From positions 1-57,802 of the forward strand of contig JBGATS010000009.1 of assembly GCA_044229075.1 (NCBI GenBank): 57,802 nt of DNA. Direction: 5' to 3'. The DNA comes from Minisyncoccia bacterium (GTDB taxonomy: Bacteria; Patescibacteriota; Minisyncoccia; Phycocordibacterales; UBA1006). The notes under the pieces were generated by a model. That model was not told the origin of the DNA. It was given only the letters and a program-made list of their open reading frames with translations, and made no database searches. Shown in pieces: positions 2,078-9,221 of this stretch. Made by a program: the position numbers and the translations under genes. The stretch's first letter is position 1. The number at the start of each line of letters is the position of its first letter.

Positions 2078-2106
2078 TTGACATAATATTATAAGTATGA
2101 TACGAT
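2078..2106 (+). promoter_or_regulatory. Sigma70-type promoter of the DGR target gene
   Basis: TTGACA (2078-2083), 17-nt spacer ending TGn, TACGAT (2101-2106). Confidence 0.75.
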
Positions 2107-2193
2107 GATACTGATATTTGATACCCGACCTCTATCTAACTTTCGAGGCTGGGTGTCGGGACCCAGTTCTTTAATTTTTAAATCAAGGAAAAG

Positions 2194-3099
2194 ATGATGA
2201 CGACTAAAAAGTTGATCACGTCGGATGACCCCAAGGGTCGTCAGGCTACGGATTTATTCCGTGGTGCTTACAACAAAGCACAGCTCACAGAAGAGCAAGC
2301 ACAACGCTTAAATGAAAACAGAGGCGGTGAGTTCACAACAGAACTTCTGCAACTGATTCAAAAGTATTCGGCTACAAACCAGTACGCTAATGAGGTGGTG
2401 TCCTCAAACTACACCTACCCCAAAGAGTACAAAGGTCCGAAACCGATTGCAGAACAGGTAAAAACCATTGCCACCATGTTCGGACTTGATCCGACACAGG
2501 CATTGGAATTTGCCAAAAACCTGCCTACGCTCCCTGAAGGCTCTGAAGGATGGTTCGCTATCCCGAAAGTGTCTGCCGTTGCAAGAAAGCAGTTTCCTGC
2601 AATCACCGACAAAGCCGAGCAGTATTGCGAAGCAGTGAAGTTGGTGCACACGAAGTTAGCCGAAAGCCGTAGCTTTTACAACTACCGCAACAGTGAAATC
2701 GTACCAAGCAAATTACGTCAGCATGCCCGCACCGTTGACTTCCTGGAACACCTGGAAGCCGAACAAACAGGCGACATTCTGATCATCGCAGTACAGTACG
2801 GTATGCGTCACCGTGGCAAATCCGTTCGCAGAGCAAGGGAAACCTTCGCAGGCAACGAATTCGGCTTAGGTGCATTCGCTATCGGCTGTATGGCTCTGGT
2901 TCACCCCGAACGCTACGTTCGCTGGGAAGAATTGGATACCGATTGTGCCGGTGACGAGTTTGCTCCGGATGCGGATGGTGTCTTCTCGAAGTCTCCGATC
3001 TTCGGCTTCTATGGCGGCAGGCTCAGGTTCTACACCAACGATGTGTCGGTTGCCTACGGTTGCTATGGCTCCGTGTCGGGCTTCGTTCCGCAGAATTGA
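2194..3099 (+). CDS. DGR target (variable) protein with C-terminal variable region
   Basis: 301 aa ORF whose C-terminal codons match the downstream TR except at TR adenines. No signal peptide or TM segment seen. A C-type-lectin-like fold is expected for DGR targets but was not verified. Confidence 0.93.
   Translation: MMTTKKLITSDDPKGRQATDLFRGAYNKAQLTEEQAQRLNENRGGEFTTELLQLIQKYSATNQYANEVVSSNYTYPKEYKGPKPIAEQVKTIATMFGLDPTQALEFAKNLPTLPEGSEGWFAIPKVSAVARKQFPAITDKAEQYCEAVKLVHTKLAESRSFYNYRNSEIVPSKLRQHARTVDFLEHLEAEQTGDILIIAVQYGMRHRGKSVRRARETFAGNEFGLGAFAIGCMALVHPERYVRWEELDTDCAGDEFAPDADGVFSKSPIFGFYGGRLRFYTNDVSVAYGCYGSVSGFVPQN
2962..3093 (+). repeat. DGR variable repeat (VR)
   Basis: 132-bp ungapped match to 3464-3595 with 18 mismatches, all opposite TR A. 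A-free GC-rich 3' tract GGCTCCGTGTCGGGCTTCGTTCCG (3067-3090) is identical in both repeats. Confidence 0.96.
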
Positions 3100-3152
3100 C
3101 GTTTGAACTTTGAGGTCTTGAGTCTTTTGACTTCTTGATCCTTGAATCCTTG

Positions 3153-3183
3153 AGAGGGTTTGCGAAAGCAAACCCTCTTTTTT
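3153..3183 (+). terminator. Hairpin downstream of VR (intrinsic terminator and/or DGR homing hairpin)
   Basis: AGAGGGTTTGC-GAAA-GCAAACCCTCT, an 11-bp perfect stem followed by a T run. Confidence 0.8.
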
Positions 3184-3209
3184 ATTGCCGTAGGCAATTT
3201 TTATATTTT

Positions 3210-3218
3210 TGATATAAT
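3210..3218 (+). promoter_or_regulatory. Extended -10 promoter, candidate start of the TR-containing RNA
   Basis: TG-A-TATAAT about 250 nt upstream of TR, just after the target-gene terminator. Confidence 0.5.
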
Positions 3219-3463
3219 GATATCTGAGTCTAGGTTAGTGTATAGTAGTTCACGGATTACTATCACCGAACTCTTTCTCCTATGAGAAATCACAATCAGG
3301 ATCACAACGACTAAGGTTTTTGTGACAGTGTTGTTGCTCTAGAGATACTGCTTACTATTTTCTAAGACAAACAAGTAATTGTATTGTTGGATTAAATACA
3401 GAATCGTGATTTATGTGCAATATCATACTTCGTGGTTTGTGGCGTAGATGGAAAATAGTAAAA

Positions 3464-3595
3464 GCTCCGAATGCGAATGGTGACTTCTCGAAGTCTCCGA
3501 TCTTCAACTTCAATGACGACAAGCTCAAGTTCAACACCAACGATGTGTCGAATGCCAACGATAACTATGGCTCCGTGTCGGGCTTCGTTCCGAAG
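3464..3595 (+). repeat. DGR template repeat (TR)
   Basis: A-rich copy of VR with 34 adenines, all at codon positions 1-2 in the target frame, including nine AAC/AAT codons. Confidence 0.96.
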
Positions 3596-3608
3596 TATCA
3601 ATTAAGCA

Positions 3609-3637
3609 CAAAAGGTATCCGTAATGGATACCTTTTG
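3609..3637. terminator. Hairpin between TR and the 3' end of avd
   Basis: CAAAAGGTATCC-GTAAT-GGATACCTTTTG, a 12-bp perfect stem with A/T runs on both sides (could act bidirectionally). Confidence 0.7.
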
Positions 3638-3646
3638 CTTTACTGT

Positions 3647-3991
3647 TTACTTCTGTGACTTAATCCATCCACCGAGCATACGACCAATTTCATCAATGAT
3701 TCCTTGGAGAAGTGTGTACTTCTTTAGATCAAGACTTTTACTTTCTTTCATAAGACGGATGAAGAATCTTATTATATTCAACTTCACACTCGTCTTTTCT
3801 AAGAGAATTATCTTTCTGTCTTTTGAGACATAACTTGCTTCAAGTACAAGCTCAAGGATATCAATGATGATATTTTCTGTCCGTTCGTACACAGAGAATC
3901 TGTCTTGTTTGGGTACCAAATTTCTGTATTCATGAAAAGTTTTATACAACTCATGAATCTTACGGAGTATTGGAACATCATTATCATTCAT
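3647..3991 (-). CDS. avd: DGR accessory variability determinant (Avd, four-helix bundle)
   Basis: 114 aa, basic, with PKQDRF near the N-terminus and C-terminal EIGRMLGGWIK typical of Avd-like proteins; lies between TR and RT. Confidence 0.9.
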   Translation of the reverse strand: MNDNDVPILRKIHELYKTFHEYRNLVPKQDRFSVYERTENIIIDILELVLEASYVSKDRKIILLEKTSVKLNIIRFFIRLMKESKSLDLKKYTLLQGIIDEIGRMLGGWIKSQK

Positions 3992-5047
3992 ATGAGAATT
4001 TATACGAATTTATTTAATAAACTTATTACTCCAGAAAACCTATTTTTTGCATGGGAGGAATTTCGCCGTGACAAGAAAAAGAAAGAAGATGTGCTTATCT
4101 TCGAGAAAAATCTTGAACGAGAAATATTCTCACTTCACCGAGAGCTTAAATCACATACTTATAAACACAGCGGGTATACAGACTTTTATATTTCAGATCC
4201 AAAACGTCGCCATATACATAAAGCACAAGTCAGAGATAGAGTGCTTCATCACGCAATTATGGGTATCTTGTATCCACTGTACGAAAAGACATTTATTCAC
4301 AATTCCTTTTCGTGTCGTATTGGTAAAGGTACTCATAAAGGAGTAGAAGCTCTACGCGGAATGCTCTATAAGGCAAGTAAAAATAACACAAGAAATGTGT
4401 ATATTTTAAAGTGCGATATAGAGAAGTTTTTTGATTCTATCAATCACGAGATATTACTTTTGGTACTTAGTTCACGGATTAAAGATCAAGAACTAATGAA
4501 TCTTTTAACTGAAGTAGTAGGAAGTTTTACTAGTTACAGGTCAACACTTTTTGATAGATGTGGTGTACCAATTGGCAATCTTACTTCTCAACTTTTTGCG
4601 AATGTTTATATGGACATGTTTGATCAGTTCATGAAGCATGAACTTAAGGTGAAATATTATGCACGGTATACTGATGACTTTGTGATAGTAAGCGAGAGTA
4701 AAGAATATCTTGTTCAATTATTACCGCGAATACGGTCATTTCTAAAAGAAAAACTGAAGATACAGATACACCCAAAGAAAGTCACGATCACTAAATTTGG
4801 TCGTGGTATTGATTATCTTGGGTATGTATTATTTCCACACTTTACTTTAGTGCGTAAACGTACACAGAAACGTGCTTTGAGGAAAATAAATGAAAAGATG
4901 CTGCTTTACAAGAAAGAAGAAATTTCAGAAGACAAAGTTCATGCAACTTTAATGTCTTATCTGGGAGTTCTTTCCCACGCAGATACTTTTAGGTTTTCTG
5001 AGAAATTAAAGAATAGCTATTTCTTTAATATGGGTAACTTTGACTAA
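3992..5047 (+). CDS. DGR reverse transcriptase
   Basis: PKRRHI..A.VRDRVLHHA, LKCDIEKFFDSI, GVPIGNLTSQLFANVY (DGR-type), RYTDDF catalytic motif, GIDYLGY. Start placed at ATG 3992 (MRIYTNLF); no maturase/endonuclease tail. Confidence 0.95.
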   Translation: MRIYTNLFNKLITPENLFFAWEEFRRDKKKKEDVLIFEKNLEREIFSLHRELKSHTYKHSGYTDFYISDPKRRHIHKAQVRDRVLHHAIMGILYPLYEKTFIHNSFSCRIGKGTHKGVEALRGMLYKASKNNTRNVYILKCDIEKFFDSINHEILLLVLSSRIKDQELMNLLTEVVGSFTSYRSTLFDRCGVPIGNLTSQLFANVYMDMFDQFMKHELKVKYYARYTDDFVIVSESKEYLVQLLPRIRSFLKEKLKIQIHPKKVTITKFGRGIDYLGYVLFPHFTLVRKRTQKRALRKINEKMLLYKKEEISEDKVHATLMSYLGVLSHADTFRFSEKLKNSYFFNMGNFD

Positions 5048-5080
5048 GAAATTCGACTAGATTTTTTAGTCACTTATGTT

Positions 5081-7414
5081 TTATAAAAACTTCTGAAGCG
5101 ACATCACTTTTTCTATATCTGTAATAATAGTCCACTCTCCATTCATAAACACGACAATGCCACCGAACAATTTTTGTGTTTTTCTGCTATTATTTTCTTT
5201 CTCTATATATTCCTGGAGTGCTTCATTCTTGGCTTTAGTGTATGTATCCCTATCTCGGTCATTCTCATCTTTTGTTTCAAAGACACCGATTCTTCCATCT
5301 GTAAATTCTACAAGATAGTCAGGGTAAAAAGTATGTACTTCGCCTTGATATTCATACTTAATACCGAAATAATCTCTTCTCATCTCGCCGTTTTTATACC
5401 ACCAATTTATATCTACCCTTGATTCTAAATATTTTTCAAACTCTCGTTCTGGTTTTGATCTAGATTTAGAAAGATAACAAGGCTGTAGAATACATTTTGT
5501 ATAATTTTCTATCTCTTCGTCCACTTCTTTATTAAAATAATCTTTTTGAACAATTTCAAAATTACTAATGATGTGTTCGGTATCTTCTTTTGCTTTCTTT
5601 TGACGGACAAGGGAGTACTTTTGTACCGCATCTAAAAATATTGGTCTTATTTTTTCTTTATTGAGCAGTAAAAACGATTGAGAACTTAATACTCCGTTAT
5701 TAATAACTTCTTCTCCAAAAAATTCACGACAAGTTAGAAACCATGCAGTAGACATTGCAGGGATTGAACGTGCAATGTTAGTAAATGGAGCCATCATGCT
5801 TTTAAAAAGTGATTTTGAAACAAACTCAACCTGTCGTTCATTTATTTTTAAAGACTGAATATCGCCGTCGTCATCCTCAAAAATATTTTTATAGTTATCC
5901 ACTTCTGTAATATCTAACACGAGATCTTTTATAACCACATGTAAGATATTATCTGTTTCAAATTGCCAGCCATTATCAGATGCTGTAGTTGGTTTTACTT
6001 TTTTTAATTTGGCAATATTATTTTTATGATCACCCTGTTTTAATTCAAGTTTTTCAGAAATAGTTTCAATAAGTATTTTCTTAAAATCAGACTTAATATC
6101 TTGATAGTCTGCACGCTCTTTATAAAAAGAAGTTAGATTAATCGGTTTGTAAAACGATATTCTCTTCGAAGGTTGATCGCCCAGTATTTTTGGACTATAG
6201 CTTTCAATATCAAAACTTGCACTACTTGTATTGGTATATACATACGCCTTATTTAACACTTCAACATCATAGTGTTTTTGCTCTGGCATACGAAGAATTC
6301 TTCCTAGTACTTGTATATTAAATATCTCACTCTCACTTTCTCTAAACTTGAGAAGTATCTGAGCACGAGGACAATCCCATCCTGTATCAATAGCTTGTTT
6401 AAAAAGCAAATATTCTTGAGGTGCATTATTTTCTGAAATTCTTTCTAAATTTCTATCTATCTTATTTTCATCATCCAGCCATACAGACAGTCTATCATCA
6501 CCCAAACTGATTCCTTGAGTATTTTTTAACTGTTCAAGTATCAATTTTTTAACCACTTCTCCACTTTCACTATTCGGGAGTTGTATTAAAAGAAGTGGAT
6601 TAATATCAATATCGTTCTCCTTGTATATACGAGCAAGTTCGTCTCGCTTATTGATAGCAGTACGAAGTATTGCCTCATCACTGTCGTCTGATTCCTTAAA
6701 GTCAAAATCAAAATTTACCAAAATTTGATCCTTGATCATCTGTTCATCAATAACATCTTGTGGGTTAATCTTTTCAATCCAACCCTTACCGTCGATGACG
6801 TCTTCTGCGGATAGTTTTAATACTGGCGTAGCAGAAACCTCAACGGTTAGTGTAGGATCAATAAGATCGATAATCTCTTTTCCTCTTTCTGCATTTGTGT
6901 GACTATGAGACTCATCGATAATAAGAACTATTTTTCTGTTGAGATTTATCGTGTTTTGTAGTATCTCTCTAAAGTTAGTGTGATCACCGTCTTTCATAAT
7001 GATGTTTTTCCAGTCTTGTGTTTTACTATCCTTGGTTCGTATTTTTTCCCAGTTTACTACCATTACAGAGTCTTTCAAAAGCTCATACTGAGAAGTACCA
7101 AAAACATTATCAATACTCTGTACTGTAGGATATCCTTCAAATACTTTTTCTAGACTTCTTCTACTTTGATTATGCAGATCTCCTTTACCGATAGATAGCC
7201 AGATAAATGTCATATCGTTAGGTTTTAATTCTTCTTTGTTTTTGTTAATTAATGACTCGATAAAACTTGCCATCATGATGGTTTTTCCTGATCCTGTTGG
7301 TGCCTGTAATACCGCGTTTTTCTTATCACTTGTTTCACTTTTTAAAAACACAAAAGCCTTCTCCGTAAGAGAATCTACTGCTTTTTGTTGATAATTTTTA
7401 AGAGTTATTTTCAT
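5081..7414 (-). CDS. res: Type III restriction endonuclease subunit (Res)
   Basis: APTGSGKT Walker A, IIDESH, GWDCPRA, QVLGRILRMP, C-terminal PDYLVE...FETK nuclease motif; directly downstream of mod. Confidence 0.9.
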   Translation of the reverse strand: MKITLKNYQQKAVDSLTEKAFVFLKSETSDKKNAVLQAPTGSGKTIMMASFIESLINKNKEELKPNDMTFIWLSIGKGDLHNQSRRSLEKVFEGYPTVQSIDNVFGTSQYELLKDSVMVVNWEKIRTKDSKTQDWKNIIMKDGDHTNFREILQNTINLNRKIVLIIDESHSHTNAERGKEIIDLIDPTLTVEVSATPVLKLSAEDVIDGKGWIEKINPQDVIDEQMIKDQILVNFDFDFKESDDSDEAILRTAINKRDELARIYKENDIDINPLLLIQLPNSESGEVVKKLILEQLKNTQGISLGDDRLSVWLDDENKIDRNLERISENNAPQEYLLFKQAIDTGWDCPRAQILLKFRESESEIFNIQVLGRILRMPEQKHYDVEVLNKAYVYTNTSSASFDIESYSPKILGDQPSKRISFYKPINLTSFYKERADYQDIKSDFKKILIETISEKLELKQGDHKNNIAKLKKVKPTTASDNGWQFETDNILHVVIKDLVLDITEVDNYKNIFEDDDGDIQSLKINERQVEFVSKSLFKSMMAPFTNIARSIPAMSTAWFLTCREFFGEEVINNGVLSSQSFLLLNKEKIRPIFLDAVQKYSLVRQKKAKEDTEHIISNFEIVQKDYFNKEVDEEIENYTKCILQPCYLSKSRSKPEREFEKYLESRVDINWWYKNGEMRRDYFGIKYEYQGEVHTFYPDYLVEFTDGRIGVFETKDENDRDRDTYTKAKNEALQEYIEKENNSRKTQKLFGGIVVFMNGEWTIITDIEKVMSLQKFL

Positions 7415-7430
7415 AAGTATGTATCATTAG

Positions 7431-9221
7431 TTATTTCGTATGACTATTTCGCTTGTAAATAGTTTCATATATTTCAAGTATCTTTTGTGGTACTTCTTCA
7501 ATATTTACTCCTTTCCATTTACGGTAATCATCTATAAAATCAGAGACGTTTCGGAGAGAAAAGATATACGCTGTTTTGTATGTATCTTGGTAACCTTTTA
7601 GGTCATTTCTCATATCCTCGAGATAACTATCGTCTAGATCGTAATAAATACCTACATGATGTTTTTGACTGTTACCTGTATCATCTATTTTAATCCCGCT
7701 ATAAATACGGTACATCAGAGTATCTCCATCTTTGGCTTCTTTTTCTAGATTAAAAGAGTTCTCTTTGAGACAGAGCATTTCAGTACATGCTTTCATGAGT
7801 CTCATTTTCATATTGTCACTATGACGAGTCTTGTCTATGTATTCACATTTTAAATATTCCAAGTTACCACCAAGACCCTCCACCTTTTCTCCTTTCTTAT
7901 TCTTGTATCCTTTCATAACTCTTTTTAGTCTCTCATAAGTTACTTCTTCACAGATATTATTTTCATTATTGGTACAGAGAATATATTGGCGATTACCACC
8001 GTCTTGTTTATTTAGTTCCATTACGGCATGTCCAGTTGTGCCGGAGCCTGCAAAGAAGTCTAAAATAGTAGAATTCTTTTTTGAGGAAATTAAAAGAGAA
8101 TCAATTACGGCGTATAAAGATTTAGGATAGTTAAATAAACCACTATCTCCGAGTATATTTTGAAGGAGTATGGTTCCCCAGGAAGAAGCATTATACTTAG
8201 GCTCATCCCAAAATGTTTTTGGTTTCTTACCTTCACCAAAAGTATTAAGTAATCTTTTTTTGCAATAAATAATATATTTATTTTTGCTCTTTTTAGCACT
8301 TAATTCGGTAAATCTTTTTTCCTCTACAGTCTCTTTTCCCCAACGCCAAACCCTCTCTATTCCAGAAGAGTCGGTGGGATATATTTCAATAGAATTGTCT
8401 CTTTTTTCTGTTAAAACTTCAAGTGTATTTATATCTATGAATAAAGGATAGAAAAGATTTGGTCTATCTGTTCTTTTTGAATTAGAGCCAGTTCTTATAA
8501 AGGATTGTAGTTTATATTTAGATATATCGTCTTCATGTTTAAACTCATCTTTTTGTTCTTCGCTAAAAGGAAGTAAATTTATTTTTGCTTTTTCCGAATT
8601 ATTTGTATAGACAAGCATGTATTCATGTGAGGTTGCAATAAAACGATCATCACTTCTACCGCCTGGGTTATGAACAACTGTTATTGTTCCTAGTCTATTA
8701 TGTTCTCCAAAAACGCTGTCTAAAATAAATCTTGAAGTGTGAATTTCATAATCATCTATTGTGAACAAAAGTATTCCGCCATCAGATAATAAATCCTTAC
8801 TACTACGAACCCTTTTTTCTATAAAAGATATCCACTTACTATGTTTATAAGAATCATCTTTTTCAACATAATCATTGTTATATCTCCAACTCTTATTACC
8901 AGTATTATACGGTGGATCAATGTATATCACATCAATCTTACCTTTATGGGTATAATTCAAAACAGAAAGAGCGTGATAATTATCTCCTTCGATTAATAAG
9001 TTTGTTCGTGAGGTATTATCTGTTACGATTTTTCTATCTTTAATTTCTTTTAAAACTGGGAACTGTTTTTCGCACTGTAAAACAACATCTTCTGGTTTAT
9101 CTTCCCAGACGAGTCCAAATTTTTTCTGCTTCTTTATTTTTTTTAATTCTGTTTCAAGTTCAGAAATACGAACAAGAAGATCCTGTTCGGAATAGTTTTT
9201 TTGTGATGACATAGTGGGCAT
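7431..9221 (-). CDS. mod: Type III DNA methyltransferase subunit (Mod, N6-adenine)
   Basis: NLLIEGDN, IYIDPPYNTG, and LDFFAGSGTTGHA in beta-class order; N-terminal FGLVWE. Confidence 0.92.
   Translation of the reverse strand: MPTMSSQKNYSEQDLLVRISELETELKKIKKQKKFGLVWEDKPEDVVLQCEKQFPVLKEIKDRKIVTDNTSRTNLLIEGDNYHALSVLNYTHKGKIDVIYIDPPYNTGNKSWRYNNDYVEKDDSYKHSKWISFIEKRVRSSKDLLSDGGILLFTIDDYEIHTSRFILDSVFGEHNRLGTITVVHNPGGRSDDRFIATSHEYMLVYTNNSEKAKINLLPFSEEQKDEFKHEDDISKYKLQSFIRTGSNSKRTDRPNLFYPLFIDINTLEVLTEKRDNSIEIYPTDSSGIERVWRWGKETVEEKRFTELSAKKSKNKYIIYCKKRLLNTFGEGKKPKTFWDEPKYNASSWGTILLQNILGDSGLFNYPKSLYAVIDSLLISSKKNSTILDFFAGSGTTGHAVMELNKQDGGNRQYILCTNNENNICEEVTYERLKRVMKGYKNKKGEKVEGLGGNLEYLKCEYIDKTRHSDNMKMRLMKACTEMLCLKENSFNLEKEAKDGDTLMYRIYSGIKIDDTGNSQKHHVGIYYDLDDSYLEDMRNDLKGYQDTYKTAYIFSLRNVSDFIDDYRKWKGVNIEEVPQKILEIYETIYKRNSHTK

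Follow-up and report, generated by a model that had tools for sequence, protein, structure and literature searches.

Our analysis of the window, by which we mean the whole stretch of 57,802 nucleotides from a contig of a Minisyncoccia bacterium, demonstrated that two genes of a diversity-generating retroelement (DGR), avd (accessory variability determinant; 114 aa, minus strand, 3647..3991) and the gene of the DGR reverse transcriptase (RT; 351 aa, plus strand, 3992..5047), start back to back on opposite strands. The junction at 3989..3994 has a zero spacer, with the avd start codon (CAT, 3989-3991) directly abutting the RT start codon (ATG, 3992-3994) and the two together forming the palindromic hexamer CATATG. 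The coordinates of avd, its minus orientation and the lack of any spacer to RT, as given in the first-pass annotation, were all borne out by the sequence, by the protein profiles and by homologue alignments. The element is a DGR of the published B3 type found in CPR bacteria, and the evidence taken as a whole makes it probable that it comprises three transcription units, with the promoters of avd and RT embedded in the respective partner gene and with mRNAs that are leaderless or carry short leaders; within this explanation, the locations of the promoters, the leaderless state of the mRNAs and any coupling of avd and RT expression are inferred.

Layout of the element and its template RNA

The element is a complete DGR. 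A 135-nt direct repeat of 86% identity occurs on the plus strand as variable repeat (VR; 2962..3096) at the 3' end of the target gene and as template repeat (TR; 3464..3598) next to RT, and the element also contains Avd. TR and VR differ by 19 mismatches over 135 nt, 18 of which are located at TR adenines, and 17 of the 35 TR adenines are unchanged in VR. The RT matched PF00078 (RVT_1) with 92.9 bits and carries the motif PIGNLTSQ, common to 594 related loci, which we take to be typical of DGRs. The target gene, a plus-strand open reading frame of 301 aa (2194..3099) with VR at its 3' end, had no match to any Pfam or NCBIfam family and is followed on the same strand by a terminator-like hairpin of 12 pairs with a 4-nt loop and a subsequent T run (3152..3179). 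Since nearly all TR/VR mismatches affect TR adenines and independent metagenome assemblies break at VR, the DGR is apparently active. The assembly breaks were found at 2908-3066 of the window, where the depth of one of the assemblies (X2) was 0.25 at 2908-3008, and they fit an ongoing diversification of VR or heterogeneity of VR in natural populations. On the 3' side of the DGR and convergent with it, the region 5081-9221 contains a minus-strand gene of the ResIII helicase family (Pfam), followed on the minus strand by an open reading frame of 596 aa that reads like a DNA methyltransferase; the two genes may form a type III restriction-modification system.

Architecture B3, as defined in the main text of Wu et al. 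(2018; PMC5758913), has the arrangement TR-(avd)-RT, in which avd is encoded on the reverse strand; 90% of the CPR set studied there showed it (Wu et al., 2018, Nucleic Acids Res 46:11). The order in the window, TR (+), avd (-) and RT (+) with no other accessory gene, is that of B3, and the host is of the CPR (Patescibacteria) type, with a genome of 721 kb at 98% completeness and with Paceibacterota, Nomurabacteria and Patescibacteria as the sources of the nearest RT homologues and loci. Architecture B1 does not apply, because avd is positioned downstream of TR and on the strand opposite to RT. When the best 80 of the 594 related loci were scored with RT and Avd profiles built for this analysis, avd was found on the opposite strand and directly upstream of RT in all 76 scorable sources, i.e., those in which both genes were present and the start of RT could be resolved, the window and the second DGR of the same genome included. 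The same avd orientation was present outside this count in three loci with no callable RT start (L016, L042 and L062); one further locus (L035) had no Avd match, and two (L052 and L065) contain too little upstream DNA to be judged. Besides its B3 element, one locus (L060, 5266-6326) carries a second, distant avd-RT pair in which the genes are co-oriented. The avd gene is likewise inverted in two further DGRs of the 721-kb genome, L002 on contig C11 (60644-63455) and L003 on contig C12 (1-1805). Each of these is truncated by the end of its contig, in one case within RT and in the other within the N-terminal part of avd. The inverted avd had initially been regarded as unusual, with the reservation that its novelty would be reduced if the layout proved common among CPR DGRs, and the survey gave precisely this result. 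In view of the B3 architecture described in the main text of Wu et al. (2018; PMC5758913) and of the 76 concordant loci, it is the published and normal layout of CPR DGRs, real but ordinary, and as the textbook arrangement it carries little weight as a discovery.

Compared with the B3 DGRs of CPR and DPANN genomes as presented in the main text of Wu et al. [quoted passage not shown] The spacing between avd and RT, a terminator hairpin and a folded leader find no mention in the passages of that paper that were consulted. With the DGR of Bordetella phage BPP-1 (B1, avd-TR-brt) the element shares a target with VR, a TR, Avd, RT and the adenine mutagenesis signature. However, the Bordetella phage element has avd, TR and RT in the same orientation (Wu et al., 2018; PMC5758913, main text). 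Since avd lies upstream of TR there, the template is inside one operon RNA, whereas avd in the window is reversed and located downstream of TR. Furthermore, the template RNA in the window would differ from that of BPP-1 in having its own promoter, a folded non-coding leader that replaces the upstream avd sequence, and a terminator in place of the long downstream spacer.

The putative promoter of the template RNA, a sigma-70-like plus-strand site at 3191..3218, matches the consensus at 10 of 12 positions and has a TG-extended TATAAT, and its -10 block is conserved in an alignment of 17 loci. Right after this conserved TG-extended -10 box begins a conserved folded non-coding leader RNA of ~210 nt upstream of TR (3226..3438, plus strand; coordinates mapped from alignment columns), which nhmmer detected in 17 of 82 other loci. 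The consensus fold, derived from the window and 16 of these 17 loci (L010, cut by the edge of the locus, was left out), comprises 40 pairs, 25 of them with compensatory changes; 95.7% of the cells were paired, compared to 36-50% when the partners were slid by 1-3 columns, and the observed values were reached by none of 500 shuffles. On the other side of TR, between its end and the avd stop codon, there is a terminator-like hairpin of 13 pairs that can form on both strands (3609..3637). A hairpin with a dG of -15 kcal/mol or lower was present in this gap in 34 of 38 loci of the tight clade to which the window belongs, compared to 29 of 228 control windows, and its stem sequences vary among the loci with compensatory changes, the 5' arm being A-rich and the 3' arm T-rich. 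Its shape, which on the plus strand includes an interrupted T run, suggests a two-way intrinsic terminator. A search of 3050-4100 against Rfam returned just two sub-threshold chance hits. The B3 template would then be a stand-alone RNA consisting of the folded leader, TR and the terminator hairpin.

Transcription of avd and RT

In the arrangement that we favor, the target gene with its own terminator would form the first transcription unit, the template RNA with its promoter (~3191-3218), its folded leader of ~210 nt, TR and the terminator hairpin the second, and the divergent avd/RT pair with no intergenic DNA the third. The hairpin at 3609-3637 would be the end point of the template RNA as well as of the avd mRNA, and would shield each from antisense transcription. 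The first-pass annotation had argued that with a zero spacer each promoter must lie inside the coding sequence of the partner gene, or else RT is read through from TR, and this reasoning proved sound. Since there is no spacer at the junction and a two-way terminator is predicted between TR and avd, the promoters most likely lie within the first codons of the partner gene, and the resulting avd and RT mRNAs would be leaderless or would have very short leaders.

The related claim that neither gene has a free leader held insofar as no intergenic DNA is available for a promoter, but the problem it appeared to pose is a weak one in this organism. The canonical core of the anti-Shine-Dalgarno (anti-SD) sequence is CCUCC, and this core is absent from the 3' end (L084, 3120-3141) of the 16S rRNA of the same genome (C1:13718-15358, a full-length Rfam match). 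Among 517 open reading frames with an ATG start, as positioned by a crude longest-ORF call, only eight have an SD core (GGAG, GAGG or AGGA) at -18..-4, and upstream of the starts G is depleted and T occupies position -1 in 75%. On the same start calls, strong -10-like hexamers were counted 122 times at 6-9 nt before the ATG in the 517 genes, compared to ~7 per position further upstream, a pile-up that constitutes a leaderless-type signature. With neither an anti-SD nor SD motifs in this organism, the missing free leader matters little here, and leaderless expression of avd and RT would be workable, as the organism makes no use of Shine-Dalgarno pairing. No relevant paper on leaderless or SD usage in CPR bacteria was found in the literature searched.

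Candidate promoter elements at the junction itself are weak. Reading by eye, we noted -10-like hexamers 7 nt before each ATG, CATTAT on the plus strand (3979-3984) and TATAAA on the minus strand (4004-3999), but across 38 tight loci such hexamers showed no clear peak in their distance to either ATG. The best box on the avd side, TATAAA without the final T, keeps its distance to the ATG of RT, rather than to that of avd, as the spacer grows, and thus may simply represent RT codons. A scan for sigma-70 promoters found nothing convincing at the junction; within avd it gave two weak sites on the plus strand (3747-3775 and 3783-3811, 9/12 matches each), and promoter-like matches in this AT-rich sequence occur at chance level (12 found compared to 8.7 expected). 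Contigs from RNA libraries (two metatranscriptome runs of one study) represent relatives that are 90-99% alike over the whole of 2100-5028, and one of them extends across the junction (3708-4038); these contigs show neither strand nor transcript ends. The contig at 3708-4038 fits embedded promoters with overlapping 5' ends, and also read-through or DNA carry-over. Two discontinuities in the RNA contigs, a joint 3292>3663 (side 26) and an opposite-strand joint at 4257/4339, were each seen in one contig and were set aside as too weakly supported for use.

Among other ways in which the pair could be transcribed, the promoters might lie deeper in the partner genes. The two mRNAs would then have complementary 5' leaders of tens of nucleotides, and both genes would be held down by antisense pairing or by transcriptional interference, which corresponds to the mutual regulation proposed in the first-pass annotation. 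The RNA-library contig that spans the junction is in keeping with such overlap, as are a TG-extended -10-like minus-strand site at ~4033-4025, read by eye, which would give avd a leader of ~27 nt, and the weak promoter-like sites inside avd on the plus strand. However, these candidate sites are no better than chance, the contigs are silent on strand and ends, and the genome-wide signal favors -10 boxes at 6-9 nt from the ATGs, so that we regard this arrangement as unlikely, though still deserving of consideration. We are equally doubtful of a stricter form of the embedded arrangement, in which two leaderless promoters would be interdigitated, with the -10 box of each in the first codons of the partner, transcription starts one base apart and polymerases that exclude each other.

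Somewhat less likely again is that RT has no promoter of its own and is translated from the template transcript, which would start at ~3225, continue through the hairpin and run antisense across avd; the level of the template RNA and the antisense RNA to avd would then be tied to the supply of RT. Such read-through would recall the Bordetella phage element, where avd, TR and RT all point the same way (Wu et al., 2018; PMC5758913, main text), and some of it would be permitted by the interruption in the T run that follows the hairpin on the plus strand. Moreover, RNA-library contigs cover 3440-3642, and one of them, with small indels at 3642-3656, crosses the avd stop codon, but again the contigs hold no information on strand or transcript ends. 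In contrast, a strong terminator-shaped hairpin occupies the same place in 34 of the 38 relatives with compensatory changes in its stem, and RT could have an mRNA of its own, leaderless or with a short leader, in an organism that needs no SD. The conserved two-way hairpin thus disfavors the suggestion in the first-pass annotation that RT is read through from TR, although partial read-through may still occur.

Start codons and spacing of the junction across relatives

The two start codons were supported by several lines of evidence. Avd matched the Pfam family bAvd (PF22296) with 63.1 bits and the NCBIfam family DivGenRetAVD (NF033474) with 81.7 bits (cut-off 80), and in the latter case residues 7-111 were aligned with model positions 2-104, so that just six residues precede the profile. 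The next in-frame start of avd is a TTG at codon 15, the use of which would cut off conserved positions, and the next in-frame start of RT is a GTG at codon 34, the use of which would delete conserved residues. A homologue search with RT found 5672 proteins at E <= 0.001 among 7998 scored, and among the 120 matches listed most are 347-351 aa long and the named ones belong to Paceibacterota, Nomurabacteria or Patescibacteria. In an alignment of 31 RTs with identities down to 46%, the first methionine is nearly invariant and is followed by conserved residues, and the N-terminal extensions present in a few longer gene calls are unconserved; three of these extensions read H-M, which again corresponds to CAT|ATG. 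In addition, related loci have in-frame stops shortly upstream of both starts, at a distance of 0-3 codons from the aligned RT ATG in at least 12 loci and of 1-2 codons from the avd ATG in at least six. The profiles, the homologue alignments and the nearby in-frame stops in relatives together make both starts secure and the spacer zero, and the alignment of the RT and Avd N-termini with homologues, proposed earlier as a check, fixed the starts as originally placed and led to the rejection of downstream ones. It is therefore very improbable that the zero spacer represents an annotation artefact, with one true start further downstream and an ordinary intergenic gap left between the genes: nothing speaks for such an artefact beyond the general uncertainty of start calls, invariant or profile-matched residues would be lost with either of the downstream starts, and the relatives keep both N-termini with in-frame stops just upstream.

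Even more remote is a misassembly or an invertible segment carrying avd, for which there is no point in favor, since contigs from two other studies, X2 (3066-5100, 0 differences) and X3 (3102-5072, 36 differences), run unbroken through TR, avd and RT and cross the junction with no joint, no inverted repeats of at least 14 nt were found flanking avd, and the orientation of avd is identical in all 76 loci. An inversion of the avd segment or a local misassembly had been named as a point to check, and neither was found.

The hexamer CATATG as such is not rare in the window, where it occurs 14 times compared to ~19 expected, and its mere presence at the junction was accordingly rejected as significant by itself. 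Chance does not account for the fact that both ATGs are true starts, nor for the conservation of the junction in relatives. In a quick RT tree the loci fall into two clades, each with 100% support. In the clade that includes the window, the spacer between avd and RT ranges from -2 to +14 nt in 38 loci with clean starts, the window counted and two loci with doubtful avd starts (L050 and L077) left out: eight loci have a spacer of -2 (CATG, an overlap of 2 nt), ten a spacer of 0 (CATATG), 11 a spacer of +1 to +5 and nine a spacer of +7 to +14. All six rows of the RT subclade that contains the window, with RT identities down to 60%, have a zero spacer, and the zero state requires four changes on the quick RT tree, which indicates that zero is an inherited yet interchangeable state of a very tight junction. 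The exact zero spacing would accordingly be one drifting state of the tight junction kept by the RT clade. General compaction of the genome is not the source of this tightness. When the genes of the 721-kb genome were called crudely as longest open reading frames, a procedure that biases gaps downward and dropped avd itself, 98 divergent gene pairs had a median gap of 136 nt, and only nine of them are separated by 20 nt or less. In the literature searched, no description was found of the spacing between avd and RT or of divergent, leaderless or bidirectional avd-RT expression.

The DGRs of the sister RT clade, which include L002 on contig C11 of the same genome, resemble the window in their B3 layout and their very short avd-RT junction, but have a G/C homopolymer at the junction, whereas the junction in the window has no such tract. 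In 25 of 29 rows of this clade, a run of 7-14 G followed by a TAnnAT box precedes the RT ATG by 9-52 nt (13 nt in 10 of the 25), and on the avd strand the corresponding C run lies 1-17 nt before the conserved Avd N-terminus. From an ATG at 18-21 nt within RT, an open frame extends as far as the run, but in most loci this ATG does not share the frame of avd. The tract of L002 is found at ~1826-1852, and others are present in loci L047-L083. The G/C tract of the sister clade could be a slippage (phase-variable) switch or a site of reiterative transcription; no paper on phase variation of DGRs or on a poly-G tract in them was found in the literature searched. For the window, a slippery-repeat (contingency) switch at the avd start was ruled out, as 3940-4040 contains no G/C run, just two copies of an in-frame 6-nt unit that is unable to shift the frame.

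If the two promoters at the junction were interdigitated, the junction would be a built-in toggle that fixes the ratio of Avd to RT and caps DGR activity in an organism without a Shine-Dalgarno system, and the slippery G/C tract would be the sister clade's answer to the same problem. As a worked example, the element in the window illustrates how the B3 template may be made as a folded RNA with its own promoter and terminator, and how a "missing leader" is no paradox where the anti-SD is absent. The tight avd-RT junction, kept within -2 to +14 nt throughout a large RT clade, would provide a clean natural case for the study of back-to-back leaderless transcription.
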